Assembly (NCBI GenBank): GCA_964541145.1
Contig: CAZIOX010000006.1
Location: 1,899 to 65,898 of the forward strand
Reading direction: 5' to 3'
DNA: 64,000 nucleotides
DNA from: an uncultured Candidatus Saccharibacteria bacterium
GTDB taxonomy: Bacteria > Patescibacteriota > Saccharimonadia > Saccharimonadales > UBA4665
The notes under the pieces are model-generated. The model saw nothing but the letters and a program-made list of their open reading frames with translations. It made no database searches and was not told where the DNA came from. The translations under genes were made by a program, and so were the position numbers. Below, one piece after another: positions 4,536-54,628 of this stretch (position 1 is its first letter; each line of letters starts with the position of its first letter).

Positions 4536-4544
4536 GTGCTATTC

Positions 4545-6611: not shown

Positions 6612-7897
6612 CGTGAAGCCTCCCGAATATTTCCGCAGCTCCAATGAGTGTTGACCACTTTTATCCCAAGCTGATCGGCCGTTAGAGGCTTGTTGACTGC
6701 TGCATATACATCTGCTGGCGGAACAAAAGATCCAACATACACAACCTTCAGGCCGGGTGCTTGCTCACTCACCTGGGCAGCGAGCACTTTTTCTGCCGCC
6801 GCAGCTATGTCTGCGCCACAGGTAGTTTTACCCAGTGTCTTTAAGCCCTCTGCGGTAAGATATTTGAGATATTCTGTATTTTTTGGTTCAGCCGTGAGTC
6901 GTTTATTGAGGTTTTCTACTTCTTCTTTGGTAAAGATGGTTGGCCCGGTAGGCAGCGAAAACTGAGCATTCTCGTACCATGCCTGCGGGTTGGTAGCGCC
7001 CGTACCCGGAAGGGCGGCTAGTGAGATCAACGAACGGTTGATCGTTACCATGCCCTGGGCAGTATCTGCTTTGATAACATCGCCCACTGGCTTTTGTAAA
7101 CAGGCGGCAATTGGCACCGTACCCACATACCCGGCTTGCAGAAGACGCGCTTCTGTTGGTGGCTGCGGGGCGCTCGATGGGGCAGATGTGGCCGCTGGCG
7201 CACTCGTCGCGGCGCTGGCACCTGGACCTGGAGTGGTAGTGTGGGTGGATGGAGCTGGGTTGGCACTCGGCTTTTGGACATCTTTCGGCAGCAATAGACG
7301 TTGCAACTCAGGTTGGGTTTCGAAAAAGCCAGTTAGTACTTTGGGTTTATATGCGGGATCCGCCGCGGACTTTTGTACCTCTGCGTCAGTTGCTTTCACG
7401 GTTATTTTAAGTAACGAGTCGCCTTGGTAGTCGAGTGGTACGCTAACGATAGACTGTAGGCAGTCTGGCCCAACAATATTCGGTGCGCTTTGGGGAGGTT
7501 CTACGGGGATGAACTTTTCCTTTACAAAACTACGAGCTATTCCCAGAGCCTCACCTGGCGTCGTCTCTGTTTTGACGAGTGCTACGGTTCCGGCTACAGT
7601 CAGCCCCACGCACGCCACAGCCAGCCGTTTGCGAGCAGTCCCCCATAGCACTGGGCCTAGTGGACGCCGTCCTTCTTCTGTACTCACTTCATCTGGATTT
7701 GCTCGGCTGTCCCCCACGGGCATTCTCCGGGGGACTGCGATACCTGGAAATGGCTCTCCTCCAGTGTTACTTGAAGATGCAGGAGTCGACTGGTTTTGTA
7801 ATGCTTTAAAAAAGGCATCGAAAGACGCGGAATCATGAGCTGGGGTTCCGCTCTTTTCCTCTCCGTTAGGTCCATGTTGTTCGGGTCGAGTACTCAT
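6608..7897 (-). CDS. Single-pass membrane protein, 429 aa, unknown ectodomain
   Basis: The N-terminal ~90 aa look disordered, followed by a TM helix (LAVACVGLTVAGTVALV). The ectodomain contains an S/A/P/T low-complexity insert and several Cys. The gene starts 2 nt after the upstream stop. Confidence 0.7.
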   Translation of the reverse strand: MSTRPEQHGPNGEEKSGTPAHDSASFDAFFKALQNQSTPASSSNTGGEPFPGIAVPRRMPVGDSRANPDEVSTEEGRRPLGPVLWGTARKRLAVACVGLTVAGTVALVKTETTPGEALGIARSFVKEKFIPVEPPQSAPNIVGPDCLQSIVSVPLDYQGDSLLKITVKATDAEVQKSAADPAYKPKVLTGFFETQPELQRLLLPKDVQKPSANPAPSTHTTTPGPGASAATSAPAATSAPSSAPQPPTEARLLQAGYVGTVPIAACLQKPVGDVIKADTAQGMVTINRSLISLAALPGTGATNPQAWYENAQFSLPTGPTIFTKEEVENLNKRLTAEPKNTEYLKYLTAEGLKTLGKTTCGADIAAAAEKVLAAQVSEQAPGLKVVYVGSFVPPADVYAAVNKPLTADQLGIKVVNTHWSCGNIREASR

Positions 7898-7899
7898 AG

Positions 7900-8517
7900 C
7901 TAAAGACTCCGAACCATATTTATGCCATCGCCAATATAGTTGCGAATTTCGCTGATTGGGTCTGTGCTGCCGGTTGTCTTGGTATACACACCAACTGTAG
8001 TGCCGCTAACTAATATCACGCCAAGTACCACCGAGAACAGCCTCCGCACGATGGATCTCTGACGCCTCTCAGCAAATTTTGGCCGAGCAGCTCCGGTGTT
8101 TTGAGGCAGTCTATCTTGCCACGCACGATGGTGCGCTGAGGCAGAATCGGGCCGTCGAGCAACCACAACGTGATGAAAATGCTCGACGGAGTCTATGGCG
8201 GCACTGTCCGGCGCGGGCTGTCCATCACCTCTTGCCCTAGAACTGCCCATAAACGCACCGGCCACTGCTGCTCCACCTGCCGTAAGCGTTCCTTTAAGAT
8301 GGATTTCTACAGCGCTGCCATCTGATTCTGTTCGTTTTAAAACTAGTTTACTGTCTGTATTAGGGGTTGATGGAACTGTTGCTACGTGAGAAGCAGGGAG
8401 ATCCGAGCCCGGAGGAGGAGGCGACACTTGCTCCGTAGGTGTTAACACCGCTAGATGTTCGCCCAGCTCATTATGGTTGGGTATATACTCAAGCCAGTCG
8501 ATATTCTCGGATGTCAT
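7900..8517 (-). CDS. Single-pass membrane protein, 205 aa, C-terminal TM helix
   Basis: I moved the start to ATG 8517 (MTSENIDWLEY), which overlaps the upstream stop as ATGA (8514-8517). The TM helix LFSVVLGVILVSGTTVGV lies near the C-terminus. Confidence 0.6.
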   Translation of the reverse strand: MTSENIDWLEYIPNHNELGEHLAVLTPTEQVSPPPPGSDLPASHVATVPSTPNTDSKLVLKRTESDGSAVEIHLKGTLTAGGAAVAGAFMGSSRARGDGQPAPDSAAIDSVEHFHHVVVARRPDSASAHHRAWQDRLPQNTGAARPKFAERRQRSIVRRLFSVVLGVILVSGTTVGVYTKTTGSTDPISEIRNYIGDGINMVRSL

Positions 8518-9641
8518 AGCCGAGCCCCGCTTGTTGTTGCAGTGGGTGCGCTTTGGGGCGGCATGGAACACGTTATCTTTTCGTCCAGTATAGCTTCTTG
8601 ATGTGTGGTATTTACTCCTTTGTTTTTGAGATCTTCCATATACGTCTCATCAAACATCGGTGGCTCTGTCGTTGGATTGCCGTCTTTTGTGAACACCACC
8701 GTTACTGCTTTGCCGGCTGCACGATCGCCACCTGCCAAGCGTATCGCCTGACTTTCGTAGGCAGCAACGGTGTTTTTCTGAATCTCGGGCCAGTAGTTTG
8801 GTGAACACTTTTTCCGAATTGCATCCAAAATAAGACTCTCTCCCCGAGCAGACAGGTTTGCATCTATTGCGGCTCGATCCAATACTGTGAAGGATTTAAC
8901 AATACCATCACATATTTTTCCTCGATCCCCATTAAATATCAGAGCCCCAGTGCACGCTAGCTCCAGACCTGTTCCGTTCAGACCGGGGTTTTCGAGGAGC
9001 AGTTTGAGCGGGGCATCGTGATCGACTACGATCTCTCGCTCACCCGGCTTCATCACCGGTGCGACAATAACACTCAGTTTTTCCACTGGAACTTTAACCT
9101 CTACTGGAACGTACCTACTGTTTGGCGTTGCAGGTTTCTGAGTGATTTCTACGCTCTGCTTGAAAGCAGTCATGTCGCCTTTCTGGTCTATACAGTACGT
9201 TAAATTTATCAGTTCTTTTTTGGCGACTACGCTCGAGCCAAAGCCGGGTATCTCACGATCCATAACTTCCAGTCCGAATTGAGCCCGAGAGCCAGCAGCA
9301 TCGGCCAGCGCGTGGGTGGTACAGGCGAAGTCAACAGGCTCCAGCAAAAGCGTTTTTGCCTGTACGGCTGAGCTCTCTGGACGTAGCTCATTCTTGATTC
9401 CAGCATTATGCACAAACCCCAAACCCCAGCCTATTGCAGCGCCAGTAACGGCTAACGCGCCAACCGATCTTAAAAACTTGGAAGAAATCGTTCCCAGTTC
9501 GCGGTTTTGCCTAGCTACCTCTCCATCCAGGTTGCTTAGCATAGCATTTGTGGCAGCTGCCTCGCCAGTGGGATTTGCAGGAGGAAACTCATTTATTCCA
9601 GGCTGTTGTGGTGTCATGTTCAAACCTTTGTCATACGACAC
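8514..9641 (-). CDS. Single-pass membrane protein, 375 aa, Cys-containing ectodomain
   Basis: About 55 aa are cytoplasmic, followed by a TM helix (SVGALAVTGAAIGWGLGFV) and then a ~300-aa domain with 6 Cys. I recognised no family. Confidence 0.65.
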   Translation of the reverse strand: MSYDKGLNMTPQQPGINEFPPANPTGEAAATNAMLSNLDGEVARQNRELGTISSKFLRSVGALAVTGAAIGWGLGFVHNAGIKNELRPESSAVQAKTLLLEPVDFACTTHALADAAGSRAQFGLEVMDREIPGFGSSVVAKKELINLTYCIDQKGDMTAFKQSVEITQKPATPNSRYVPVEVKVPVEKLSVIVAPVMKPGEREIVVDHDAPLKLLLENPGLNGTGLELACTGALIFNGDRGKICDGIVKSFTVLDRAAIDANLSARGESLILDAIRKKCSPNYWPEIQKNTVAAYESQAIRLAGGDRAAGKAVTVVFTKDGNPTTEPPMFDETYMEDLKNKGVNTTHQEAILDEKITCSMPPQSAPTATTSGARL

Positions 9642-22617: not shown

Positions 22618-22703
22618 GCAGGGTTAGTGAAGCGGTCAAACACGACAGACTGTAAATCTGTTGGCTTATGCCTTCGTAGGTTCGAATCCTACACCCTGCA
22701 CCA
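22618..22703 (+). tRNA. trnY: tRNA-Tyr (anticodon GUA), long variable arm, CCA encoded
   Basis: GCAGGGTTAGTGAAGCGGTCAAACACGACAGACTGTAAATCTGTTGGCTTATGCCTTCGTAGGTTCGAATCCTACACCCTGCACCA. Confidence 0.95.
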
Positions 22704-23044
22704 GCATCTTTTTGTCTACGTAGTAGATGAAAAGTTGCTGGAGCGGGCTGGAGGATGAGAACCGTACGGCGGAGCCGAGGTTCGTACAGGTGTGAGCGTG
22801 CAGGAGCTTGCTCCGAAAAGCGAATACCGTGCGAGCGAAGCGAATCCTACACCCTGCACCAGCATCTTTTTGTCTACGTAGTAGATGAAAAGTTGCTGGA
22901 GCGGGCTGGAGGATGAGAACCGTACGGCGGAGCCGAGGTTCGTACAGGTGTGAGCGTGCAGGAGCTTGCTCCGAAAAGCGAATACCGTGCGAGCGAAGCG
23001 AATCCTACACCCTGCACCAGCATCTTTTTGTCTACGTAGTAGAT
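22683..23044. repeat. Perfect tandem repeat, 158-bp unit, about 2.3 copies, beginning inside the T-loop of tRNA-Tyr
   Basis: Units start at 22683, 22841 and 22999 (the last is partial and ends near 23044). Each starts with cgaatcctacaccctgcacca, which is the last 21 nt of tRNA-Tyr. Copies 1 and 2 are identical by eye. Confidence 0.95.
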
Positions 23045-35550: not shown

Positions 35551-35603
35551 ACACGCCCAGTGTGATGTACGAGGTCTAACCTCGTACATCACACTGGGCG
35601 TGT
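35551..35603. other. Perfect 24-bp hairpin (5-nt loop) upstream of the transporter gene
   Basis: acacgcccagtgtgatgtacgagg, tctaa, cctcgtacatcacactgggcgtgt. Confidence 0.9.
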
Positions 35604-37896: not shown

Positions 37897-37907
37897 TATG
37901 ATTTAGA

Positions 37908-37975
37908 GTTAAGAAGTATGAGTTATGAGTTAAGAGTTTTATGCTCTTATCTCTTTTCTCTTATCTCTTATCTCT
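37908..37975. repeat. Imperfect inverted repeat built from GAGTTAAGAG / CTCTTATCTC motifs
   Basis: The arms are gagttaagaagtatgagttatgagttaagag and ctcttatctcttttctcttatctcttatctct, with about 22 of 31 positions pairable and a perfect inner 9/10 stem. The motif is the same as in the repeats flanking the four-helix-bundle gene at 53.4-53.8 kb. Confidence 0.7.
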
Positions 37976-38113
37976 CCTTTCCTTTAGTTTACGATTCTTA
38001 TTCATGGAACGTATTATACCGGCCACTGCTCCTGCTATAATTACTGCCCCGAGTAAAATTCCAATAAATGCTTCTTGTCGAACATTATCCATAGCAGTCG
38101 TGGCAAAGTACAT
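37961..38113 (-). CDS. Small membrane protein candidate (50 aa, 1 TM) between rpsH and rplF
   Basis: My hand translation is MYFATTAMDNVRQEAFIGILLGAVIIAGAVAGIIRSMNKNRKLKERRDKR followed by a stop. The ATG lies 4 nt after the rpsH stop, and no SD is seen. Confidence 0.4.
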   Translation of the reverse strand: MYFATTAMDNVRQEAFIGILLGAVIIAGAVAGIIRSMNKNRKLKERRDKR

Positions 38114-38886: not shown

Positions 38887-38996
38887 TATATAGCTCCTTT
38901 CAGTCGTAGAGTCATGAAGCATGAAGCACCAGTCATGAAATCTGCTTTGCAGCTGGTAACCATACCTTGTCTCTTGTTTCTTGTCTCTTGTCTCAT
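38886..38996 (-). CDS. Bridging micro-ORF / 111-nt repeat element copy 1 (36 aa), L5 stop to S14 start
   Basis: My hand translation is [36 protein letters not shown] followed by a stop. It has an ATGA overlap with the rplE stop and a TAATG overlap with the rpsN start. It is about 80% identical, without gaps, to 43527..43637. Confidence 0.4.
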
Positions 38997-39592
38997 TTTG
39001 ATTCCTTTTCAAACGGCATACCAAACTTCTGCAGCAGTGCCTTACTGTGAGCCTTGTCTTCGCACTTCACGACAAATACAGCTTGCAAGCCGTGCGGCGT
39101 GGTCGTTTCCTCAAAGGTCAGCTCCGGGAAGACGCTCTGATCGGTCAGGCCAATACTGTAGTTCCCTTGCTTGTCAAATGCTTTTAGTTTCACCCCGCGG
39201 AAGTCGCGCAGACGCGGAAGTACGATGTTGATGAGTCTGTCCATAAACTCGTACATTCGCTCGCCCCGTAGTGTCAATCTTAACCCAATCATATTGCCTT
39301 CGCGCAACTTAAAGCCGGCGATAGAGTTTTTTGCGACGGTTTCAACTGGTTCCTGACCAGTGACTTTACGCAGCGTGTTTTTGGCGGCTTCAATCGTCTT
39401 CTTGTCTTCTTTGGCTCGACCAAGACCGACATTGACTACAATTTTTTCGAGCTTCGGCACCTGATGGGCGTTTTTCAGCCCAAGCTCTTTCATAAGCTCT
39501 GCCGCAAACTTCTCGTTGTACTCATTTTTCAGACGAGCAACATACGGTTTTATTGCCTTCTTGGGAGCAGGTTTTTTTGTCGTTTCAGCCAT
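38993..39592 (-). CDS. rplE: 50S ribosomal protein L5
   Basis: [39 protein letters not shown]. Confidence 0.95.
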
Positions 39593-39963: not shown

Positions 39964-39998
39964 TTTCTTGTCTCTTGTTTCTTGTCTCTTGCTTGTCA

Positions 39999-40367
39999 TT
40001 ACAGTACCTCCGGTGCAAGGCTGATGATTTTGGCATAGCCCATGTCGCGCAGTTCGCGAGGTACCGGTCCAAAAATACGTGTTGCCTTTGGCTGCTTGTC
40101 GTCACCGACAATGACCGCTGCATTATCGTCAAACTTTATGGTGCTGCCATCTTTACGCTTGATTTCTTTCGTGGTGCGTACCACTACGGCACGTACCACT
40201 GATTTCTTTTTTACCCCACCACTTGGGTTCGCTTGCTTGACCGTGGCGGTTATGATGTCACCCACTCGAGCATATCGCCGACGCGTTCCACCAAGCACAC
40301 GTATGCAGAGAATTTCCTTGGCGCCGCTATTGTCGCAGACGACGAGGCGCGTTTCTTGCTGAATCAT
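39999..40367 (-). CDS. rplN: 50S ribosomal protein L14
   Basis: [27 protein letters not shown]. Confidence 0.95.
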
Positions 40368-43527: not shown

Positions 43528-43637
43528 TATGCAGCTCCTTTCAGTCGCAGAGTCATGAAGCATGAGTTACGAGTCATGACAGATGCCATGCAGATGTTCT
43601 CTAGTTCTTGTCGGCTGTCTCTTGTTTCTTGTCTCAT
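43527..43637 (-). CDS. Bridging micro-ORF / 111-nt repeat element copy 2 (36 aa), L23 stop to L2 start
   Basis: My hand translation is [36 protein letters not shown] followed by a stop. It has an ATGA overlap with the rplW stop and a TAATG overlap with the rplB start. Confidence 0.4.
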   Translation of the reverse strand: MRQETRDSRQELENICMASVMTRNSCFMTLRLKGAA

Positions 43638-44059
43638 TTTGATTCCTTCTTACCGACGAGTTTTTTCAGACCCTTCGGCTTGGATACGTTTTCTTCAGAC
43701 TTTTTGTCTGCTTTCTTCGCAGCTTTGGCCTTTTCAGCTTCAGCTTTGGCAAGTTCTTCTTCGGCCGCGGCAAAAAATGGCAAATGGCTTCCGGCTTCCA
43801 GGGTCACATAGGCTTTTTTGGTGTCGGGCTGTGTACCTTTGCGATTGCTGCTGCGTTTGCCAGTTGTATTCATGACGCGCTTTACTTTGCCCTTGCGATT
43901 GACAACTCGAACGCTTTGTACCTTGACGTCAAACTGCTTTTCAACCGCATCTGCCACTTCGTATCTGTTGATTTCACTTGGGATGTCAATAACAAAGGTG
44001 TTCGTCGTTTGGCTTAGACCAAAGGCCTTCTCACTCAGTCGTGGTTTGAGAGTATGCAT
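43634..44059 (-). CDS. rplW: 50S ribosomal protein L23 with K/A/E-rich C-terminal extension
   Basis: I moved the start to ATG 44059 (MHTLKPRLSEKAFGLSQ), 1 nt after the rplD stop. Confidence 0.9.
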   Translation of the reverse strand: MHTLKPRLSEKAFGLSQTTNTFVIDIPSEINRYEVADAVEKQFDVKVQSVRVVNRKGKVKRVMNTTGKRSSNRKGTQPDTKKAYVTLEAGSHLPFFAAAEEELAKAEAEKAKAAKKADKKSEENVSKPKGLKKLVGKKESK

Positions 44060-46148: not shown

Positions 46149-47657
46149 CTAGGCGGCTCTATCAAGTAGCTCGTCGAGTTCATACGACTTTTGTTTCGAG
46201 TAGCCGATAATGCCGGCGCCGATGTTGTTGACGCGTTTCTGTATACACTTCAGCCCTCCCAATCGTTCTCCGCCTACCTTGTAGCCGTCATGTGAAGCGC
46301 GTTTGCCGACACGAGCACGGTGACGATCGGCTCTTGTTTGAATCATGATCTCGACTGGCGTGCCATCGAAGTCAATTGCAGCCTTGACAACTCGAAATTC
46401 TTTTTTATGCGTTCTTAGATCCTCTTTGATCGTACTGACATCGAGTCCAACTTCGCACATCTCATTTTTGATTGTTTCGATATAGGCCTTGTCGCCACGA
46501 ACATCGAGACCGGCTACGGTTGGGTCGTTCGACGCCAGGGTGGCATGGTTGCTTTCATAAATGTTTAGCTGCATTTGGCAGAATACATCACAGAGCTGCG
46601 TCATATTATCTACGACAATAGTCAGCCCAACCATGTCCAGCACTTTTTGTCCTGGTCGCTTAAACATTTTCATGGCATATGATCCGAGCGATTTTCGTCT
46701 CCAAACCACTTGAAACGGATCCTCACCCTGTATATCACGCTGGAGCCTAGATTCACCGACAATGATGTCGTGGTCGGTGTTATCTTCAAAGCAGTGTTTG
46801 CTGACGAGAGAACCGCCAAATATGTCGTGTAGAACGCTATCGACGATCTGTAGGGTTTCCTTGCGATCATACGGCTCAAGTCTCTTTTGAGCTTCCTCGA
46901 CAACACTGTGTAGACCCAGCTTTTTGAGACGAAGCACGTTTGCGGCGCTCCTGAGAGCCATTGCAACACCATCAAAGCCCATTGCTTCGTTTATCTTTGC
47001 AAACACCTGGGAGTCAAAAATGTGACGGAGAATCGTTGTGTCTTTGCGCGCTGGCGTTTTCAGCCTATCGATATGCCTGATAGATTCTTTATTAACTGCT
47101 TCGACATTCACGTGATTCAACATGGCATCAATACGTTCAAGGGGCGCGGGAGGCAAGTCAAAGTTCCATAGCGCCTTTGAGACAGGTTCATCATCGTTTG
47201 AGTCGATAATGCTTGCGATCTCTGTTCCTTGTAGTGTGTGGTCACGGATTACATCGAGATGCGTACGAAGCTCTCGACCGTCAACCAAAAAAGCAGCTGT
47301 TTTACGCCATCGTTTGGGTGGTTGAGTACTCCGATATTCACGCAATGCTTGTATTGCCAGTGTCTGCTCACTAACCTCAATTTCTGAGCTTGGCTGGCTC
47401 ATTACCGCTTCACCGATCGCCTGGAGTAGCGTAGCCCGCTTAATACCCTTTCCAATGCCCTTTCCATCGCTAAAATCGCATAATTCTACATACGTACGTA
47501 GTGTATATTGCAAAATACGCAGCGCTGAATCTGGATCATTGAGTTCATCCGTGTAGCCTACGAGTGTTTTCACCTCTGGGAGAAAGTCAGGTGCGACGTG
47601 CTCAAGCGAGGCCACTACGCCTTCTGTACCAGGCAGATCAAACCTTGAAATAGCCAT
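46149..47657 (-). CDS. Divergent RelA/SpoT-like (alarmone-synthetase-fold) nucleotidyl/pyrophosphotransferase with a ~330-aa unknown N-terminal region
   Basis: The C-terminal third carries synthetase-type blocks: RRKSLGSYAMKMFKR (R-x-K-x3-S-x3-K), LDMVGLTIVV (D-x2-G), PVEIMIQTR (the EIQIRT equivalent) and ASHDGYK (H-x2-YK). The GY-x-S-x-H block is replaced by EFRVVK. No HD hydrolase motif is seen. Confidence 0.65.
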   Translation of the reverse strand: MAISRFDLPGTEGVVASLEHVAPDFLPEVKTLVGYTDELNDPDSALRILQYTLRTYVELCDFSDGKGIGKGIKRATLLQAIGEAVMSQPSSEIEVSEQTLAIQALREYRSTQPPKRWRKTAAFLVDGRELRTHLDVIRDHTLQGTEIASIIDSNDDEPVSKALWNFDLPPAPLERIDAMLNHVNVEAVNKESIRHIDRLKTPARKDTTILRHIFDSQVFAKINEAMGFDGVAMALRSAANVLRLKKLGLHSVVEEAQKRLEPYDRKETLQIVDSVLHDIFGGSLVSKHCFEDNTDHDIIVGESRLQRDIQGEDPFQVVWRRKSLGSYAMKMFKRPGQKVLDMVGLTIVVDNMTQLCDVFCQMQLNIYESNHATLASNDPTVAGLDVRGDKAYIETIKNEMCEVGLDVSTIKEDLRTHKKEFRVVKAAIDFDGTPVEIMIQTRADRHRARVGKRASHDGYKVGGERLGGLKCIQKRVNNIGAGIIGYSKQKSYELDELLDRAA

Positions 47658-47902
47658 ACTTATATTTTAGCATACTATCCTGATTTTGTCCAGTTTCTAT
47701 ATCCGTCCACCATACATTGGACTGTTGTATTGGTAATCGTAACAAGTCCTATAAGTTCAGATTAGCTTTTTTGGCACTGAGCCCTAGGTAGCACATAGCA
47801 CGCGTCAAATGATCCCATATGACCTGATTCTCATCAAATAAAATGGAAGACAGTATCCATACTCATAAACTTGAGAAATGTTCATGTAAGATGCTATGTG
47901 TA

Positions 47903-48346
47903 TCATAGTTGTTTCTGGTATTCATCACCCAATCTCTTACTGGGCATGTAGCCAAATGAACGGAGTAAGTCTCTCATCCCAACTCTTTCTTCTTCTACGC
48001 TTGCACGCACAATATTGGTTCCACTAGCCAGTGCCGCCGCCTCGATCGCTTCTAGAAGGTTTTTTGCCCGACCTTCGCGCTGGTTTTTTGGGTTCGTGGC
48101 TAAGAACACTATTTCCAATGCCTCACCTATTGTATGGGTGGCCGCAGCAGCAGCTGTGACACACCCACTTGTTGGATCTTCCACTATAAATAAATCTGTA
48201 GCGACACATTCTCCAAGGGTTCTTAATAGACCTTCGTCCATCCCAAACGGCTCACGGAAAAGTTCGAGTACACCATTAAAAAGGTTTTGATCCGTTAAAA
48301 ATTTTTCGGAGCCAATATTTTTGACAACTGAATTTAATTCAGACAT
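47903..48346 (-). CDS. GNAT-family N-acetyltransferase, 147 aa
   Basis: The acetyl-CoA motif-A-like block is IVFLATNPKNQREGRAKNLLEAIEAAA (Q/R-x-x-G-x-A). Confidence 0.65.
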   Translation of the reverse strand: MSELNSVVKNIGSEKFLTDQNLFNGVLELFREPFGMDEGLLRTLGECVATDLFIVEDPTSGCVTAAAAATHTIGEALEIVFLATNPKNQREGRAKNLLEAIEAAALASGTNIVRASVEEERVGMRDLLRSFGYMPSKRLGDEYQKQL

Positions 48347-48449
48347 GAAACTTATTGTATCATGTTTTTTTATTTTTGTCTACTAAACTGCCTATATGAC
48401 GCGTACCGGCTATTGTCTTTACGCAAGCTTTTCGTGTTTTCCAAGAATG

Positions 48450-48782
48450 TTACATCTTGATTTCGACGTCGCAGCCAGCGGGGAGGGAGAGGTTCATGAG
48501 GCTGTCGATGGTCTTTGGAGTCGGTTCAAACACGTCGATGAGGCGCTTGTGGACGCGCATTTCGAACTGTTCACGGCCTTTTTTATAGACGTGCGGGCTT
48601 TTTACCACCGTAAAGGTACTTTTGCGCGTGGGTAGTGGTATAGGTCCAGCAAGGCTAGCGCCAGTGCGCAAGGCTGTGTCGACAATCTGCTTGGCTGCTT
48701 GGTCAATGATTTTGTGGTCGTAGGCCTTCAGGCGTATACGAATACGTTGTTTGCCTGTTGGTGCTTGGGTGGCGTCTGCCAT
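48450..48782 (-). CDS. rpsJ: 30S ribosomal protein S10
   Basis: [41 protein letters not shown]. Confidence 0.95.
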
Positions 48783-48996
48783 GGTAAAACCTCCGGTTTT
48801 TTTAGGTTACTGGTTATAGACTATAGGTTATGGGCTTCATTCCCACAAAAGCTATTGCCTGGTGCAAACGGCCGGCTTCACCCGACTGGGCTTTGTAACA
48901 CCTTACGAATCCACCTGGGAACACGCACGGCTTTTAGTCAAAGCTACTAGTTTACCTGTGTATCGTATCATTTTTGTTAGATAAAAGCAAAGCCGC

Positions 48997-49407
48997 CTAG
49001 CGTTGCTTCTTGCGAAAGCGTATAACATGGGCAGCTTTTTTGTGGATTGACCGCTTGGGCGGTTGCGCAGAATATTCGGCGAAGATGGTGTCGATAAAGT
49101 CATCCATTTCTGTGTCAGTCATATCTGAGGCAGCCCCTTCGCCACCAAGATCGTCACGGTACTCTACCGTAGCTATACCAGTGCGAAAACTGTGCATGCG
49201 GTCGTAGGCACGACGAGCAACGGGGTCTTTGAGGGTGGCGTACGCTTTATTGAGCTGCTGCATATGTTCTAGCGACCCTCCTGCATCAGGGTGCTGGTGT
49301 TTGGCGAGTTTCATAAAAGCAGCTCGAATCTCAGTAGGCAAAGCACCCGGCTCTACCCCTAACAACTTGTACAGGTCAATAAAACTTTCGTAAGCTCCCT
49401 CTGCCAT
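48997..49407 (-). CDS. J-domain (DnaJ-like) protein, 136 aa, no Zn-finger or C-terminal DnaJ domains
   Basis: DLYKLLGVEPGALPTEIRAAFMKLAKHQHPDAGG, which contains the HPD motif. The acidic middle is followed by a basic tail (RFRKKQR). Confidence 0.8.
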   Translation of the reverse strand: MAEGAYESFIDLYKLLGVEPGALPTEIRAAFMKLAKHQHPDAGGSLEHMQQLNKAYATLKDPVARRAYDRMHSFRTGIATVEYRDDLGGEGAASDMTDTEMDDFIDTIFAEYSAQPPKRSIHKKAAHVIRFRKKQR

Positions 49408-49512
49408 AACGTCTTAGTATACTCGACTTATGTAAAAATCGCGCTATCTTCAGGCGCCGCCACGAGTGATAGAAGTTTTTGCTATGTTAAGTTTAGCCTG
49501 CTTCAGCACGAA

Positions 49513-49550
49513 AGAGAAGCGCTCTGTCAAATGAGACGGAGCGCTTCTCT
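49513..49550 (-). terminator. 12-bp hairpin after tuf
   Basis: agagaagcgctc / gagcgcttctct with a 14-nt loop. The U-tract on the minus strand is weak. Confidence 0.4.
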
Positions 49551-49575
49551 GTTCTGGGATGACTCCCAGGTGAAA

Positions 49576-50760
49576 CTATTTCGTGATAGCGGTCACGACG
49601 CCGGCACCAACAGTGCGACCACCTTCGCGAATAGCGAAGCGTAGACCCTGCTCCATTGCAATAGGAGCAAGTAGTTTGACTTTGAAGGTGATAGTGTCAC
49701 CCGGCATGACCATTTCTTTGTCAGCTGGGAGCTCAACTTCACCAGTCACGTCCGTGGTGCGGAAGTAGAACTGAGGCTTGTAGCCCTTGAAGAATGGCGT
49801 GTGACGACCACCTTCTTCTTTGCTAAGGATGTAAACCTCGGCGTCAAATTCGGTGTGAGGGGTGATTGTACCTGGCTTGGCAAGTACTTGACCGCGCTCG
49901 ATGTCATCGCGCTCAATACCGCGTAGTAGTACACCGGCATTGTCGCCGGCTTGACCTTGGTCAAGAGATTTCTTGAAGGCTTCTATACCTGTTACGACAG
50001 ACTTCGTGGTTGGGCGAATACCGACAATTTCTACTTCGTCGTTTATCTTGACAATACCTTGTTCAATACGGCCAGTTGCGACGGTGCCGCGACCCTTGAT
50101 ACTGAACACGTCTTCGATAGGCATAATGAACGGCTTGTCAAGGTCTCTGGTTGGCTCTGGAAGGTAGTCGTCCATGGCCTGTACCAGTTCCATAACGGCG
50201 TCTTCATTTGCGGCATCGCCTTCGACAGCCTTGGCTGCTGAACCCTTGATGATTGGACAGTCCCGATCGAAACCATTTTTCTCGAGAAGTTCGCGAATTT
50301 CTTCTTCAACGAGTTCGACGAGGTCGGCGTCAGCGAGATCCATTTTGTTCATGAAGACCAAGATCTTTGGTACACCAACCTGACGCGCAAGCAGTACGTG
50401 CTCGCGAGTTTGCGGCATAGGGCCGTCGGCAGCAGAAACGACGAGGATTGCGCCGTCAACCTGAGCAGCACCGGTAATCATGTTCTTGACATAGTCGGCG
50501 TGGCCCGGCATGTCGACGTGTGCGTAGTGGCGCTTTTCGCTTTCGTACTCTTGGTGAGAGGTGGCGATGGTTATACCGCGAGCCTTTTCTTCTGGGGCGT
50601 TGTCGATTTGCGCGTAGTCAACCTTTTTGTTGGTGTCGCTGGGAAGTTTTTTCGCCAATACAGAAGTGATAGCAGCGGTTAGTGTTGTTTTGCCGTGGTC
50701 GACGTGACCCATCGTACCAACGTTGACGTGCGGCTTGCTTCGGTCAAATGTTCCTGCCAT
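49576..50760 (-). CDS. tuf: Elongation factor Tu
   Basis: [18 protein letters not shown] and NKMD motifs. 394 aa. Confidence 0.98.
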
Positions 50761-50971
50761 AAAAGGTAGTACTCCTAATATTATGTTAATAGTTGTTCAC
50801 GCGGTCCATATTGCTCTGCTGTACTTTTCTCATACGCTCGTACATACCACAGCAACGCCCTCACGCGAGATACGGTGTTATTGTACCGTAGGACGCCTAC
50901 AGAAAGCAAGGCATTTTGGCTGACTAATCGTATTGTATTTTTAGATCGAGTTTATCAGCTATTTGGAAGAT

Positions 50972-51226
50972 TCACTTTTCCAGACGATCTTGTTGGTTGT
51001 CTCGTGCCACATTGTCGGAAATGATGTCTTCTATGCGCTTCATGTGCGAGTCAAGTACGCTGTATATATGGTTGAGCTTACTGTCTATCTCGTCAAACCA
51101 CTTGTCGTGTTGAACCAGCTTTTGTTCAACGCCGAACAAGCGGGTGTCCATGGCATCAAATCGATTATTTACCAAAGTGAACTGTTCAGAAATGGTCTGC
51201 GACACGTCAGACACGACTCCAATCAC
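50972..51226 (-). CDS. Small coiled-coil protein candidate, 84 aa, GTG start
   Basis: The sequence is heptad-like (FDAMDTRLFGVEQKLVQHDKWFDEIDSKLNHIYSVLDSHMKRIEDI). It lies between fusA and tuf, in the same frame as the fusA stop. Confidence 0.4.
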   Translation of the reverse strand: MIGVVSDVSQTISEQFTLVNNRFDAMDTRLFGVEQKLVQHDKWFDEIDSKLNHIYSVLDSHMKRIEDIISDNVARDNQQDRLEK

Positions 51227-51274
51227 ACCATCAAGATCTGTCGGGTTTTGCCCATAGTAGGGTAGCGCTTCGTC

Positions 51275-53362
51275 TTATTTCGAGTTTTTGGCGATGATGG
51301 CTTCGGCGACATTGTTAGGTACGTCGGCGTAGTGCGCAAGCTCCATGCTTGAGCTGGCTCGGCCTTGGCTCATCGAGCGCAGGTTTGTGGTGTAGCCAAA
51401 CATCTCTCCAAGTGGAACGAACGCTGTAATTTCCTTGATCCCAGACGAAAGATCCTCCATGGACTCGATGCGCCCGCGCTTGCTGTTTAGGTCGCCTATG
51501 ACGTCGCCCATAAACTCTTCAGGGGTGACGACGACGACTTTCATAACTGGCTCAAGCAGAACGGGGCCAGCTTTTTTGAAGCCGTCCTGGAAGCCCATAC
51601 TACCGGCTATGCTAAAGGCCATTTCGTTACTATCGACTTCGTGGTAACTGCCGTCGTACAACTCAACTTTCACGTCTACGACCGGGTAGCCAGCGATAAC
51701 ACCGTTGCTCATGGCTTCTTCTATACCCTTGCGCACGGCGGGGATGTATTCGGAAGGCACCACGCCACCCTTGATAGAGTTTATGAACTCAAAGCCAGCG
51801 CCCTGTTCGTTTTGACTCAGTCGCAACCAGACATCACCGTACTGACCGCGTCCACCACTCTGGCGGACAAACTTGCCTTGGGCTTCCACGGCATCTTTAC
51901 GGATGGTTTCACGGTAAGCCACTTGTGGCTGTCCGATGTTGGCCTCCACGCTAAACTCGCGTTTCATACGGTCGACGAGGATTTCGAGGTGTAACTCACC
52001 CATGCCAGAGATGATAGTCTGGCCGGTTTCGTCGTCAACACGAACGCGGAAAGTGGGGTCTTCTTCGGCGAGTCGCTGGAGTGCGAGGCTCATTTTCTCT
52101 TGGTCGGCCTTGGTCTTTGGCTCGATGGCAATAGACACGGGTGGCTCTGGGAAGGTAATGTTTTCGAGCTGAATGGGGTGTGCTGGGTCGCAGAGTGTAT
52201 TGCCAGTGGTCGTGCCTTTGAGGCCTACGATAGCAGCGATGTCACCAGCGACTACTTCGGTCACGTCTTCGCGCTTGTCGGCTTGCATGCGGACAATGCG
52301 ACCGACACGCTCTTTTTCGCCCGTTGAGCTGTTCAGCACATATGAGCCGGCCTGAAGTACGCCGGAATACACACGGAAGTAGGCGAGCTTACCAACAAAT
52401 GGGTCGGTGGTGATTTTGAAGGCCAGGCCAGCGAGCGGTTCGCTCGTGTCGTGTTTGCGCTCGATCTCTTCACCAGTTTTCGGGTGCACGCCCCAGGCGT
52501 TGCTGCGGTCATCTGGTGCTGGTAGATAATCGTTGACCATGTCTAGCACTTTTTCGACGATGACGCCGCGGCCATCACCACCGGTGACGGCATAGAATTT
52601 ACCGCTCAGCACCGCACTGCGTATGGCTTGCTTGATATCTTCCACGCTCAAACCTTCTTCGCCAACCTCAAAGTACTTTTCGAGCATGGCTTCGTCTTCG
52701 GCGACAGCGTTTTCGATAAGCAGACTGCGGTATCGCTTCACCTGTTCCATCATGTCAGCCGGAATATCACCCTCGACGAGTTCGTGGTCGTGGAACTCGG
52801 TGTAGGTGTAGCTCTTCATCGCGACAAGGTCGACAACTCCATTAATACTCTGTTCAAAACCGATGGGGAGATGTACGGGGAAGGCACGCTTGCTCAACCG
52901 GTTATGAATACTCTCGAGCGATTTGTAGAAGTCGCCACCAGTTTGGTTGATTTTATTGATGAAACAGATACGTGGCACACCGTACTTGTCTGCCTGACGC
53001 CAAACCGTTTCGGATTGGCTTTCGACGCCCATTTTGCCGTCGAAAACCACACAGGCTCCGTCGAGAACACGAAGTGAACGTTCCACTTCGGCAGTAAAGT
53101 CGATGTGGCCTGGCGTGTCGATAATGTTGATCTGCTTGCCCTTCCAAAAGCAGGTCACAGCAGCTGACACGATGGTAATGCCGCGTTCACGCTCCTGGTC
53201 CATCCAGTCGGTTGTAGTGCCACCTTCGTGCACGGCACCAATTTTGTGCTTCAGACCCGTTCGGTACAAAATACCTTCGGTCGTCGTCGTTTTGCCCGCG
53301 TCGATGTGGGCTATGATACCCATGTTGCGGATGTCTTTCATCAAAACTTTTTTATCTGCCAT
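51275..53362 (-). CDS. fusA: Elongation factor G
   Basis: AHIDAGKTTTTE, DTPGHIDF and NKIN motifs. 695 aa. Confidence 0.98.
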   Translation of the reverse strand: MADKKVLMKDIRNMGIIAHIDAGKTTTTEGILYRTGLKHKIGAVHEGGTTTDWMDQERERGITIVSAAVTCFWKGKQINIIDTPGHIDFTAEVERSLRVLDGACVVFDGKMGVESQSETVWRQADKYGVPRICFINKINQTGGDFYKSLESIHNRLSKRAFPVHLPIGFEQSINGVVDLVAMKSYTYTEFHDHELVEGDIPADMMEQVKRYRSLLIENAVAEDEAMLEKYFEVGEEGLSVEDIKQAIRSAVLSGKFYAVTGGDGRGVIVEKVLDMVNDYLPAPDDRSNAWGVHPKTGEEIERKHDTSEPLAGLAFKITTDPFVGKLAYFRVYSGVLQAGSYVLNSSTGEKERVGRIVRMQADKREDVTEVVAGDIAAIVGLKGTTTGNTLCDPAHPIQLENITFPEPPVSIAIEPKTKADQEKMSLALQRLAEEDPTFRVRVDDETGQTIISGMGELHLEILVDRMKREFSVEANIGQPQVAYRETIRKDAVEAQGKFVRQSGGRGQYGDVWLRLSQNEQGAGFEFINSIKGGVVPSEYIPAVRKGIEEAMSNGVIAGYPVVDVKVELYDGSYHEVDSNEMAFSIAGSMGFQDGFKKAGPVLLEPVMKVVVVTPEEFMGDVIGDLNSKRGRIESMEDLSSGIKEITAFVPLGEMFGYTTNLRSMSQGRASSSMELAHYADVPNNVAEAIIAKNSK

Positions 53363-53374
53363 AGAAGCTCCTTG

Positions 53375-53404
53375 GAGTTAAGAGATAGGAGATAAGAGAT
53401 AAGA
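53375..53404. repeat. Inverted repeat, left arm (3 nt from the stop of the four-helix-bundle gene)
   Basis: gagttaagagataggagataagagataaga. 28 of 30 positions match the reverse complement of 53774..53803. Confidence 0.9.
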
Positions 53405-53407
53405 CTC

Positions 53408-53773
53408 TTATTTCGTACCATTTGTTTTGTTAATTAAGCCTGTTAGTACTTTGTGGCACGCTATGCTCGCTTCATCCAGCTCTTGGTATACATGATTTTG
53501 TATATAGCGAACGTCCTTTGCCACCAATAGCTGCGCTTGAACCTCATGCAATGAAGCCCGCGCCATATCGTAAAAGTGCGTTCGATCTGCCATAGTTCTT
53601 CGGCCAAATCCTTCTGCTATATTCGAAACAATTGATACGGTTGATCGCCGGATTTGATTGGTAAGACCGAAAATCTCATCTTTTGGAAAATCTTTGGTAA
53701 TCTTATAGATTTCTAAAGTTAAAGCATGTGACTTTTGCCAAGCAATGAGGTCTCGAAATGTATGGATGCTCAT
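53408..53773 (-). CDS. Four-helix-bundle protein of the '23S rRNA intervening-sequence protein' family
   Basis: FRDLIAWQKSHALTLEIYKITKDFPKDEIFGLTNQIRRSTVSIVSNIAEGFGR matches the family signature (W-Q-K-A, Q-x-R-R-A-x-x-S-I-x-x-N-I-A-E-G). 121 aa. Confidence 0.8.
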   Translation of the reverse strand: MSIHTFRDLIAWQKSHALTLEIYKITKDFPKDEIFGLTNQIRRSTVSIVSNIAEGFGRRTMADRTHFYDMARASLHEVQAQLLVAKDVRYIQNHVYQELDEASIACHKVLTGLINKTNGTK

Positions 53774-53803
53774 TCTTAACTCTTATCTCATATCTCTTAA
53801 CTC
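53774..53803. repeat. Inverted repeat, right arm (abuts the ATG of the four-helix-bundle gene)
   Basis: tcttaactcttatctcatatctcttaactc. Confidence 0.9.
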
Positions 53804-53818
53804 TACTCTTTTGCGGCT

Positions 53819-54298
53819 TTAGCCCCTAGCAAAATGCGCGAACGCACGGTTCGCTTCGGCCATGCGGTGGGTGTCTTCACGCTTTTTCACTGCACTGCCC
53901 TGGTTGTTGTAGGCGTCCATGAGTTCTAGAGCGATGCGGTCAGCCATGCTCATGCCTTTACGGGCGCGGGCAGCAGCTACGAACCACATCGTAGTGAGGT
54001 GGTTTTGACGCTGACCCTTTACCTCAAATGGAATCTGGTAGTTGGCACCACCGACACGGCGAGAGCGAGTCTCGACATTGGGGCGGATGTTACTGAAAGC
54101 CTGCTCGAACACGTCGAGTGGGTTGTCTACCTTTAGTTTTTTGGCAGCAGTTTCCATGCCCGTGTAGACGAGGCGTTCGGCGACTTGCTTTTTACCATCG
54201 CGCATAACGCGGTTTATCAGCCGCTGCACGGGTACGCTGTTGTACACGCGGTCAGCGGGAATATCACGAACAAGTGAGGCGGTTACTTTCCTAGGCAT
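53819..54298 (-). CDS. rpsG: 30S ribosomal protein S7
   Basis: MPRKVTASLVRDIPADRVYNSVPVQRLINRVMRDGKK. Confidence 0.95.
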   Translation of the reverse strand: MPRKVTASLVRDIPADRVYNSVPVQRLINRVMRDGKKQVAERLVYTGMETAAKKLKVDNPLDVFEQAFSNIRPNVETRSRRVGGANYQIPFEVKGQRQNHLTTMWFVAAARARKGMSMADRIALELMDAYNNQGSAVKKREDTHRMAEANRAFAHFARG

Positions 54299-54465
54299 TA
54301 TTTTTTTCCTCCATTTTTCATTTGGGCAACAATTTTGTCTGACTCTGACACAATAGCCACACCGATAATCACCCCTAGAACACGTACCATGTCTGAGACA
54401 GCGAGCAGCGAAACGGCGACAACTATAGCAGCACCTAAGAATACAATAAGGTACTTAGCGTTCAT
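54298..54465 (-). CDS. Small 2-TM membrane protein B (55 aa) between rpsL and rpsG
   Basis: My hand translation is MNAKYLIVFLGAAIVVAVSLLAVSDMVRVLGVIIGVAIVSESDKIVAQMKNGGKK followed by a stop. AAGGAG lies 8 nt upstream of the ATG. The TAA overlaps the rpsG ATG, and the last codons carry the GGAGG SD for rpsG. Confidence 0.55.
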   Translation of the reverse strand: MNAKYLIVFLGAAIVVAVSLLAVSDMVRVLGVIIGVAIVSESDKIVAQMKNGGKK

Positions 54466-54628
54466 GCTTCTTCTCCTTCTGCGCATCAGTGATCCATGCG
54501 ATAGATAGCAGGACAATTATAAGAACGAGAGCGATCTGTAGCCAACGAAGCTTTTGTGCCGAAGTCACTATGAGCACCGTATTGAGTGCAAGAATGCTTA
54601 CGAGTCGCTGAATGTCTTTCGGGCTCAT
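54455..54628 (-). CDS. Small 2-TM membrane protein A (57 aa) between rpsL and rpsG
   Basis: My hand translation is [57 protein letters not shown] followed by a stop. The ATG overlaps the rpsL TAA (TAATG), and the SD AAGGAGAG lies within the last rpsL codons. Confidence 0.55.
   Translation of the reverse strand: MSPKDIQRLVSILALNTVLIVTSAQKLRWLQIALVLIIVLLSIAWITDAQKEKKHER

Follow-up and report, generated by a model that had tools for sequence, protein, structure and literature searches.

Why does a gene of the protein family first noticed inside intervening sequences (IVSs) of 23S rRNA lie between the genes for ribosomal protein S7 (rpsG) and elongation factor G (fusA), bracketed by the two arms of an inverted repeat? 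The locus belongs to a 64,000-nt stretch of DNA (here, the window) from an uncultured Candidatus Saccharibacteria bacterium (contig CAZIOX010000006.1, positions 1,899–65,898), the minus strand of which carries the rpoB-rpoC-rpsL-rpsG-fusA-tuf-S10-spc ribosomal superoperon. An earlier note on this DNA, made from the sequence, had proposed a gene dropped between the two and looped out of their mRNA by its flanking repeats, as either an IVS-like mobile cassette or a processing switch. The analysis described here favours, with a probability of roughly 60%, an IVS-type cassette resident in an mRNA operon, in which the stem would loop out the open reading frame (ORF) and would probably be cut by RNase III, by analogy with the rRNA elements.

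The rpsG–fusA cassette

The junction comprises the following features, listed in the order of transcription with window coordinates.

53819–54298, minus strand: rpsG (ribosomal protein S7; PF00177, E 1.8e-53), the upstream gene of the junction.
53804–53818, minus strand: 15-nt spacer from the rpsG stop codon to the 5′ arm, read from the sequence.
53774–53803, minus strand: 5′ arm, GAGUUAAGAGAUAUGAGAUAAGAGUUAAGA in transcript sense, about 4.3 units of a 7-nt repeat, adjoining the AUG of the enclosed gene.
53408–53773, minus strand: enclosed ORF of 121 aa, a four-helix-bundle '23S rRNA IVS protein' of the S23p family (PF05635, TIGR02436).
53375–53404, minus strand: 3′ arm, UCUUAUCUCUUAUCUCCUAUCUCUUAACUC in transcript sense, beginning 3 nt past the ORF stop codon.
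53368–53373, minus strand: Shine–Dalgarno sequence (SD) of fusA, AAGGAG, 1 nt past the 3′ arm and 5 nt before the fusA ATG, read from the sequence.
51275–53362, minus strand: fusA (EF-G, with EF-G Pfam domains), the downstream gene of the junction.

The spacers on both sides of the ORF measure 45 nt (53363–53407 and 53774–53818), and the inverted repeat within them (53375–53404 with 53774–53803) is 30 nt long and complementary at 28 of 30 positions; one arm adjoins the ATG, the other lies 3 nt from the stop codon, and in all of these coordinates the earlier note was accurate. Two further properties, absent from that note, are the heptamer make-up of the arms, which are tandem arrays of GAGWTAA (Tandem Repeats Finder period of 7, with 4.3–4.4 copies in each arm), and the presence elsewhere in the window of other heptamer elements, among them an ORF-less hairpin. 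In total the cassette measures 429 nt, with a stem of 30 bp, and is inserted in sense orientation between the rpsG stop codon and the fusA ribosome-binding site, with 15 nt between the stop codon and the stem and a single nucleotide between the stem and AAGGAG.

The repeat-enclosed architecture is real and highly non-random. Its inverted repeat is the longest in the 64-kb window and is matched in none of 100 dinucleotide shuffles; the RNA duplex of the two arms has a predicted energy of −38.1 kcal/mol, and in transcripts of 471–1301 nt the pairs of the arm helix have a mean probability of 0.82. Inside the cassette no promoter-like or terminator-like site was found, and no U-run follows the stem. 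Comparison of the cassette with Rfam 15 gave chance-level matches only, none with E below 0.13 and none with a score anywhere near its gathering threshold, and no rRNA match was found in the window.

The enclosed protein

Assignment of the 121-aa protein to the IVS protein family, as first proposed from the translation, is borne out by matches to PF05635 (E 1.8e-36, 125 bits, cutoff 33.8) and TIGR02436 (119.3 bits, cutoff 24). Modelled with AlphaFold as a monomer only (pLDDT, the predicted local distance difference test, of 95.6), it is predicted to form four helices (residues 10–26, 37–56, 61–87 and 93–118), with TM-scores of 0.90 to XCC0516 (PDB 2GSC; sequence E-value 3e-17), 0.80 to BT_0352 (2RLD) and 0.79 to Avd (4DWL), a protein of diversity-generating retroelements (DGRs). 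All three are homopentamers (PMC4990558; bioRxiv 10.1101/2023.10.23.563531). The published family motif is GxxRxxxSxxxNxxE (PMC3936711), of which R43, S47, N51 and E54 are present and invariant (alignment A1); the position of the motif glycine is Q40 here, and an invariant glycine occurs at 36.

The ratio of nonsynonymous to synonymous substitution (dN/dS) of the cassette protein is 0.03–0.10 at saturated synonymous sites (dS of at least 1.1), which indicates that the protein is under purifying selection. It belongs to a large family, 21,519 cluster representatives at 50% identity matching it. To our knowledge, PF05635/TIGR02436 has had no known function outside DGR Avd since its discovery in rRNA intervening sequences in 1993. 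The cassette has no match among the defence systems of PADLOC and contains no transposase, integrase or nuclease domain, and no relatives of its gene were found on viral contigs.

Conservation at the junction

Orthologues of the enclosed gene lie between rpsG and fusA in other Saccharibacteria (64–88% protein identity), in every case together with arms. Two arm types are present at this junction, with units GAGWTAA and GAGNCAT, each self-complementary but pairing poorly with the other. In four lineages (the window, L002, L020 and L022) all 30 positions of the 5′ arm are identical, although the ORF has a dS of 1.1 or more in comparison with L002 and L020, and one too saturated for an estimate in comparison with L022.

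RNAalifold recovers the arm helix from ten aligned rpsG–fusA cassettes. Across the 31 pairs of this helix, 88.7% of alignment cells are paired, compared with at most 53% in slid registers, and 10 of the 31 pairs have changed in both partners; covariation scores 0.235, versus 0.127 in shuffles, and none of 500 shuffles reaches the observed value. Within each heptamer, the GAG core and position 6 are invariant, and positions 4, 5 and 7 covary. The ORF, the pairing and the sequence of the arms all appear to be constrained, because dN/dS is low, the helix covaries and the 5′ arm has stayed identical despite saturated dS.

Four kinds of unrelated insert (L100, L106, L110/L112 and L115) occupy the same junction in other genomes, namely proteins of 309, 177 and 136 aa (hhalign probability of 0.1 against the family) and a 378-nt insert, and none of the four has heptamer arms. 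The arms belong to the PF05635 gene and not to the rpsG–fusA junction. A clean empty rpsG–fusA site was not found, the relatives that lack the cassette having other inserts or a broken operon. These comparisons indicate that the cassette has been inherited stably at rpsG–fusA within this clade, and that it is no recent insertion in decay.

As an observation in its own right, the junction is a hot spot of unrelated inserted genes (L100, L106 and L110–L115), with products of 309, 177, 136 and 73 aa without a Pfam match, and its content varies even between genomes with identical S7 protein.

Stem-enclosed genes in many phyla

A survey was made of 80 loci, one genome per species, chosen as the best matches to the query (44–85% identity); they come from many phyla of the candidate phyla radiation (CPR), and from Gammaproteobacteria, Bdellovibrionales, Verrucomicrobia, SAR324, Planctomycetes and Clostridia. 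Each was scored for the best ungapped Watson–Crick stem between both gene ends, with the 99th percentile of 398 displaced-geometry controls as the threshold. A flanking stem exceeds this threshold in 71 of the 80 loci (median score 16.8, control mean 7.5), and 136 of the 142 arms have their best self-identity at a lag of 7 (0.74, versus about 0.27 at other lags). The median cassette of these 71 loci is 437 nt, and 52 distinct heptamer units occur among them. Stems score 18.7 within a locus versus 8.8 between loci, the cross-locus value being that of the background, and the cross-compatibility of arms between loci drops from 0.86 to 0.3 as protein identity falls.

The surveyed genes are found largely among housekeeping genes, with 106 Pfam families upstream and 88 downstream, usually at 0–25 nt between an arm and the neighbouring coding region, and 64 of the 80 have the same orientation as both neighbours. 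In the ATP synthase operon, cassettes occupy three different junctions, depending on the lineage; at atpG–atpD, the start codon of the cassette gene overlaps the upstream stop codon (ATGA) and the arm encodes N-terminal residues. A scan for rRNA genes was confined to the 14 loci whose neighbours are unusual (non-coding, distant or on the opposite strand), and none of these lies in an rRNA gene. The survey shows enclosure by a stem to be a general trait of this protein clade, found in many phyla.

Arm composition is polarized across the 71 loci. The 5′ arms are 67% purine and the 3′ arms 65% pyrimidine; with 5.9% C in the former and 5.8% G in the latter, each DNA strand starts with a C-poor arm, and none of the tested explanations accounts for this C-poor 5′ and G-poor 3′ polarity. 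The longest k-mer common to the outer flanks has the same distribution in these loci and in the cross-locus control, a result that gives no sign of target-site duplication, although fuzzy arm boundaries could hide short ones.

ORF-less heptamer elements in the operon

Four elements related to the cassette by their heptamers, and without its gene, were located on the same strand of the window.

37903–37975, minus strand: ORF-less hairpin with GAGATAA/GAGTTAW heptamer arms, directly upstream of rplF (fold −21.1 kcal/mol, z −3.1).
38895–39007, minus strand: mini-element at rplE–rpsN, composed of AAGGAAUCAAAAUGA, (GAGACAA)n, a short central hairpin, (CAUGACU)n and CGACUGAAAGGA.
39964–39999, minus strand: solitary 5′-type heptamer array AUGACAAGCAAGAGACAAGAAACAAGAGACAAGAAA (purine-rich, GACAAGA-type) from the rplN stop codon to the rplX AUG, without a complementary partner.
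43535–43648, minus strand: second copy of the mini-element, at rplW–rplB.

The rplF hairpin lies at the S8–L6 junction and is preceded by a mini-ORF (37961–38092, minus strand; 43 aa, transmembrane-like), the stop codon of which falls inside the 5′ arm. Just 5′ of the stem is an SD-like AAAGGAAAGGAG, and the rplF AUG lies 12 nt 3′ of the stem; only the folded hairpin puts this SD-like sequence next to the AUG. In a relative (L109) the junction is compact, at about 20 nt, and the whole 221-nt insert of the window is absent.

The two mini-elements of the window are about 112 nt each and about 78% identical. Their start, AAGGAATCAAAATGA, adds a ...KESK tail to the upstream protein, together with its stop codon and an ATGA overlap, and their end, CGACTRAAAGGAG, is the SD of the next gene; a possible 35-aa frame (MRQETR...RLKG) overlaps the start and stop codons of the neighbours. 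Such shared ends occur only among the ORF-less mini-elements, not among the gene-bearing cassettes. A metagenome scan with the mini-element 5′ end identified a relative about 77% identical in DNA (copies in L107–L109), in which mini-elements occur instead at S5–rplO and rpsL–rpsG and are identical to each other at 110 of 112 positions. Filled in the window and empty in that relative (L109), S8–L6 is the sole clean empty site found.

The differences in presence and absence, together with the near-identical ORF-less copies, argue for past mobility. Duplicative spread of the ORF-less elements is argued for in the same way, and against it stands that no transposase and no target-site duplication was found. 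Of the earlier proposals, that of an IVS-like cassette able to occupy non-rRNA sites fares well: the design is found at many such sites, repeats accompany other members of the family, the relatives with the gene at rpsG–fusA have repeats too, and ORF-less copies and presence/absence differences exist. The wording 'dropped in' calls for qualification, because in this clade inheritance is stable and purifying selection acts on the ORF and, it appears, on the arms.

Two observations concern the neighbouring rpsL–rpsG junction. In the window it contains two small transmembrane-like ORFs (54298–54628, minus strand; 57 aa and about 55 aa) joined by a TAATG stop/start overlap; in relatives (L011, L108 and L115–L124) it contains ORFs of 45–83 aa or a mini-element.

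Proposed mechanism and alternatives

The cassette, having no promoter of its own, would be transcribed by read-through of the str operon, a need to which the co-orientation of 64 of the 80 surveyed genes also points. Once the 3′ arm has been transcribed, the arms would pair into a helix of about 30 bp. The ORF would be looped out and its start region buried, and the fusA SD would stay accessible at the stem base; such folding would also bring rpsG close to that SD, as the earlier note suggested and as the spacing at the junction allows. From the shared architecture, this helix is likely to be a substrate of RNase III, as in the 23S IVSs of Coxiella, Leptospira and Salmonella, and the cut would remove the ORF RNA from the polycistronic transcript. 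The lag of about 400 nt between the syntheses of the two arms would provide a short co-transcriptional window for translation of the passenger protein, keeping its expression low and rpsG and fusA undisturbed. The heptamer arms could lengthen, shorten and re-register by slippage while pairing is kept, a property that would account for a separate unit at each locus. The mechanism predicts RNase III-dependent cutting within core operons of CPR bacteria.

Several points weigh against this looping and processing of an IVS-type cassette. Formation of the stem in vivo and its cleavage by RNase III are read across from homology of architecture, and the analogy is incomplete, the Coxiella ORF being thought untranslated and decaying (PMC4990558), in contrast to the strongly conserved ORF here. 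Covariation at rpsG–fusA reflects largely one deep split between the two arm types, and whole-cassette replacement could mimic compensation in situ; it may contribute to the covariation, because genomes with identical S7 protein have either arm type or an unrelated insert. Mismatches in the surveyed stems are G·U in 48 cases and A·C in 53, and without an excess of G·U nothing points to the sense RNA, in preference to DNA or the antisense strand, as the level of selection on pairing. The mini-elements fold no better than shuffles, which means that elements persist with arms that do not fold significantly. Finally, the surveyed loci, as the best matches to the query, are not a sample of the whole PF05635 family.

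Three other readings, none of which excludes the looped and processed cassette or the others, place the function of the arms elsewhere. As a translational gate and insulator that is not cleaved, the stem would use its pyrimidine-rich, anti-SD-like arm to hide the purine-rich start region, allow the passenger to be translated only by ribosomes coming from rpsG or during the co-transcriptional window, and keep rpsG and fusA functionally adjacent. The AUG that adjoins the 5′ arm, the rpsG stop codon 15 nt upstream of it, the ATGA overlap and arm-coded N terminus of the atpG–atpD cassettes, the purine and pyrimidine bias of the arms (67% and 65%) and the way in which folding of the S8–L6 hairpin unites AAAGGAAAGGAG with the rplF AUG fit such a gate; but a helix of 27–35 bp, the size of RNase III substrates, far exceeds what masking a ribosome-binding site needs, the distance from arm to start codon differs between loci, and the homologous rRNA elements are cut (PMC4990558). 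We regard a gate without cleavage as possible yet somewhat improbable. Action at the DNA level, with the arms as terminal inverted repeats of a mobile element, a hairpin or a cruciform, the RNA stem as a by-product and the protein as a mobility or accessory factor, is in our view unlikely. Its difficulties are that the cassette has no transposase, integrase or nuclease domain, that target-site duplication does not rise above the cross-locus control, that 52 arm units would require 52 specificities, that co-orientation of 64 of the 80 genes with the host operon points to a need for read-through, and that a pure insertion scar would not explain arms kept with the ORF through long vertical descent at one site. 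It would nonetheless suit the roughly 100 different contexts occupied, the differing content of one junction among identical-S7 genomes, the ORF-less copies (110/112 identical at two junctions of one genome, and at other junctions in the window), the filled and empty S8–L6 site, the lack of G·U bias, and the C-poor arm at the start of each strand, an end symmetry expected of element termini.

The heptamer arrays might instead be binding sites, in RNA or DNA, of the enclosed protein, presumed pentameric, for example with one protomer per 7-nt unit, serving autoregulation, protection from RNase III or formation of a ribonucleoprotein. The modelled fold is that of the pentameric XCC0516 and DGR Avd, Avd binds a stem-loop in RNA, and the segments that flank the template in the DGR RNA form a duplex with each other (bioRxiv 10.1101/2023.10.23.563531); each arm has about 4–5 units, its sequence is kept beyond the needs of pairing, arm type diverges along with the protein, and arrays of the same type exist elsewhere in the operon. 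Binding data for the family are confined to its DGR members, however, the correlation of arm and protein is confounded by common descent, and the ORF-less elements and solitary arrays may be mere relics, which leaves this reading doubtful. A wider proposal, offered tentatively and itself unlikely, would treat PF05635 cassettes and their ORF-less derivatives as self-propagating operon-junction elements, of which the 23S IVSs are the special case noticed first: the pentamer would bind its own heptamers at about one protomer per unit and would spread or maintain the element by way of the stem-loop RNA or the corresponding DNA hairpin, and ORF-less copies would ride on it in trans, supplying a stop codon and SD that keep the host operon working. 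Very improbable, by comparison, is a remnant or accessory (Avd) gene of a DGR. The weak match to bAvd (PF22296, E 1.8e-07, below cutoff), 28.5 bits to NF033474 and the TM-score of 0.79 to Avd speak for it; against it, the NF033474 cutoff is 80, no template/variable repeat pair or long direct repeat was seen near the gene, and loci L002–L019 and L100–L124 have housekeeping neighbours and no RVT domain. No reverse transcriptase was detected among the 20 other large ORFs of the window that were tested, in agreement with the earlier note's remark that none is nearby, and the rest of the window is ribosomal superoperon. With no reverse transcriptase detected and the Avd cutoff missed, a DGR is effectively refuted for this locus.

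Other features of the window

Several further features of the window were recorded. In the ribosomal operon, a perfect 25-bp hairpin with a 3-nt loop (35551–35603) lies just past a terminator-like hairpin and U-run that follow rplO. Non-ribosomal genes interrupt the superoperon at 46149–51274 (minus strand): an 84-aa ORF between fusA and tuf, where L002 has a GIY-YIG gene, a DnaJ-domain protein between tuf and rpsJ, and a GNAT acetyltransferase and a 502-aa Pfam-less protein after rpsJ. Outside these regions, a perfect 158-bp tandem repeat (22683–23044, plus strand; 2.3 copies, 100% identity) contains the tRNA-Tyr 3′ end CGAATCCTACACCCTGCACCA three times and could be an integration scar or an assembly artefact. 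The region 1623–9641 (minus strand) encodes a 970-aa protein that has phage-tail-lysozyme and VanY domains and, after it, four large Pfam-less ORFs (699, 429, 223 and 375 aa).

Comparison with known systems

Intergenic heptanucleotide arrays are known from Xanthomonas, where GGGAATC arrays include about 70 convergent pairs, and from Beggiatoaceae and cyanobacteria, where TAACTGA arrays stand just before start codons (PMC4692102, PMC4679880). They resemble the arms described here in their tandem 7-nt units, their transcribed intergenic sites, often a few nucleotides before starts, and their occasional inverted pairing; unlike the locus-specific units of the cassettes, they use one unit per genome, and PMC4692102 and PMC4679880 make no link to PF05635. 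Genes of the family have also been noticed between cas genes, and a 'functional association' with CRISPR-cas was reported (PMC3936711). A full-text search, with most subscription journals outside its coverage, found no description of PF05635 genes in heptamer stems outside rRNA, and no paper, within the same incomplete coverage, that links heptamer arrays, cas-adjacent family genes and rRNA IVSs. If the stem-enclosed design is as general as it seems, the association of the family with CRISPR-cas or other operons may be hitch-hiking, and such cassettes become a concrete candidate for the source, or a partner, of the excess heptanucleotide repeats seen between bacterial genes.

DGR Avd shares with the cassette protein what is, on the model, the same fold (TM-score 0.79); Avd itself is a pentameric barrel of positive charge and binds structured RNA (bioRxiv 10.1101/2023.10.23.563531). 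It differs in that the protein here falls below the Avd model cutoff and neither a reverse transcriptase nor template/variable repeats were found beside it, and Avd genes are not described as enclosed in heptamer stems. Miniature inverted-repeat transposable elements and classical DNA transposons differ as well, the cassettes having no common terminal repeat, with 52 units in 71 loci.

Correia elements of Neisseria and the ERIC (enterobacterial repetitive intergenic consensus) elements of Yersinia are intergenic inverted-repeat elements inside transcription units, present in many copies at different sites. Their termini pair in mRNA, and RNase III processing affects the flanking cistrons; they have conserved terminal repeats and target-site duplications and no ORF. 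The cassette and the ORF-less elements are likewise intergenic insertions in transcription units at many sites, but with locus-specific heptamer arms, without a detected duplication and, in the cassette, with a conserved gene enclosed.

Among 23S IVSs, ORF-less forms in Salmonella, Yersinia, Campylobacter and alpha-proteobacteria are short stem-loops removed from the transcript by RNase III (cited in PMC4990558). They are plausible counterparts of the hairpin at 37903–37975 and of the mini-elements, with the differences that the elements of the window lie between protein genes, that the mini-elements do not fold significantly, and that some of the window's elements provide the last codons and stop codon of the gene before them and the SD of the gene after them.

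The 23S IVSs with an S23p ORF (in Coxiella, and in Leptospira, Brucella and Xanthomonas) share with the cassette the protein family and a sense ORF in a highly transcribed unit. That of Coxiella burnetii, in helix 45, is 428 nt long with an S23p-family ORF inside, and has a 28-bp stem made of GACAGAT heptamers in tandem, which directly precede the ATG and vary in number from strain to strain; RNase III cuts within the stem (PMC4990558). The gene-in-a-stem likeness drawn by the earlier note is close in its particulars: 428 and 429 nt in size, stems of 28 and 30 bp formed from the element termini, and tandem heptamers upstream of the ATG in both. What differs is the host, here a junction in a protein-coding operon and not an rRNA helix, the feature by which an IVS is defined, and the cleavage by RNase III, demonstrated in Coxiella and here expected by analogy. 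If genes of this family are generally enclosed in stems at housekeeping junctions, the rRNA IVS would be one habitat of a general cassette, the origin and purpose of which become open to comparative study.

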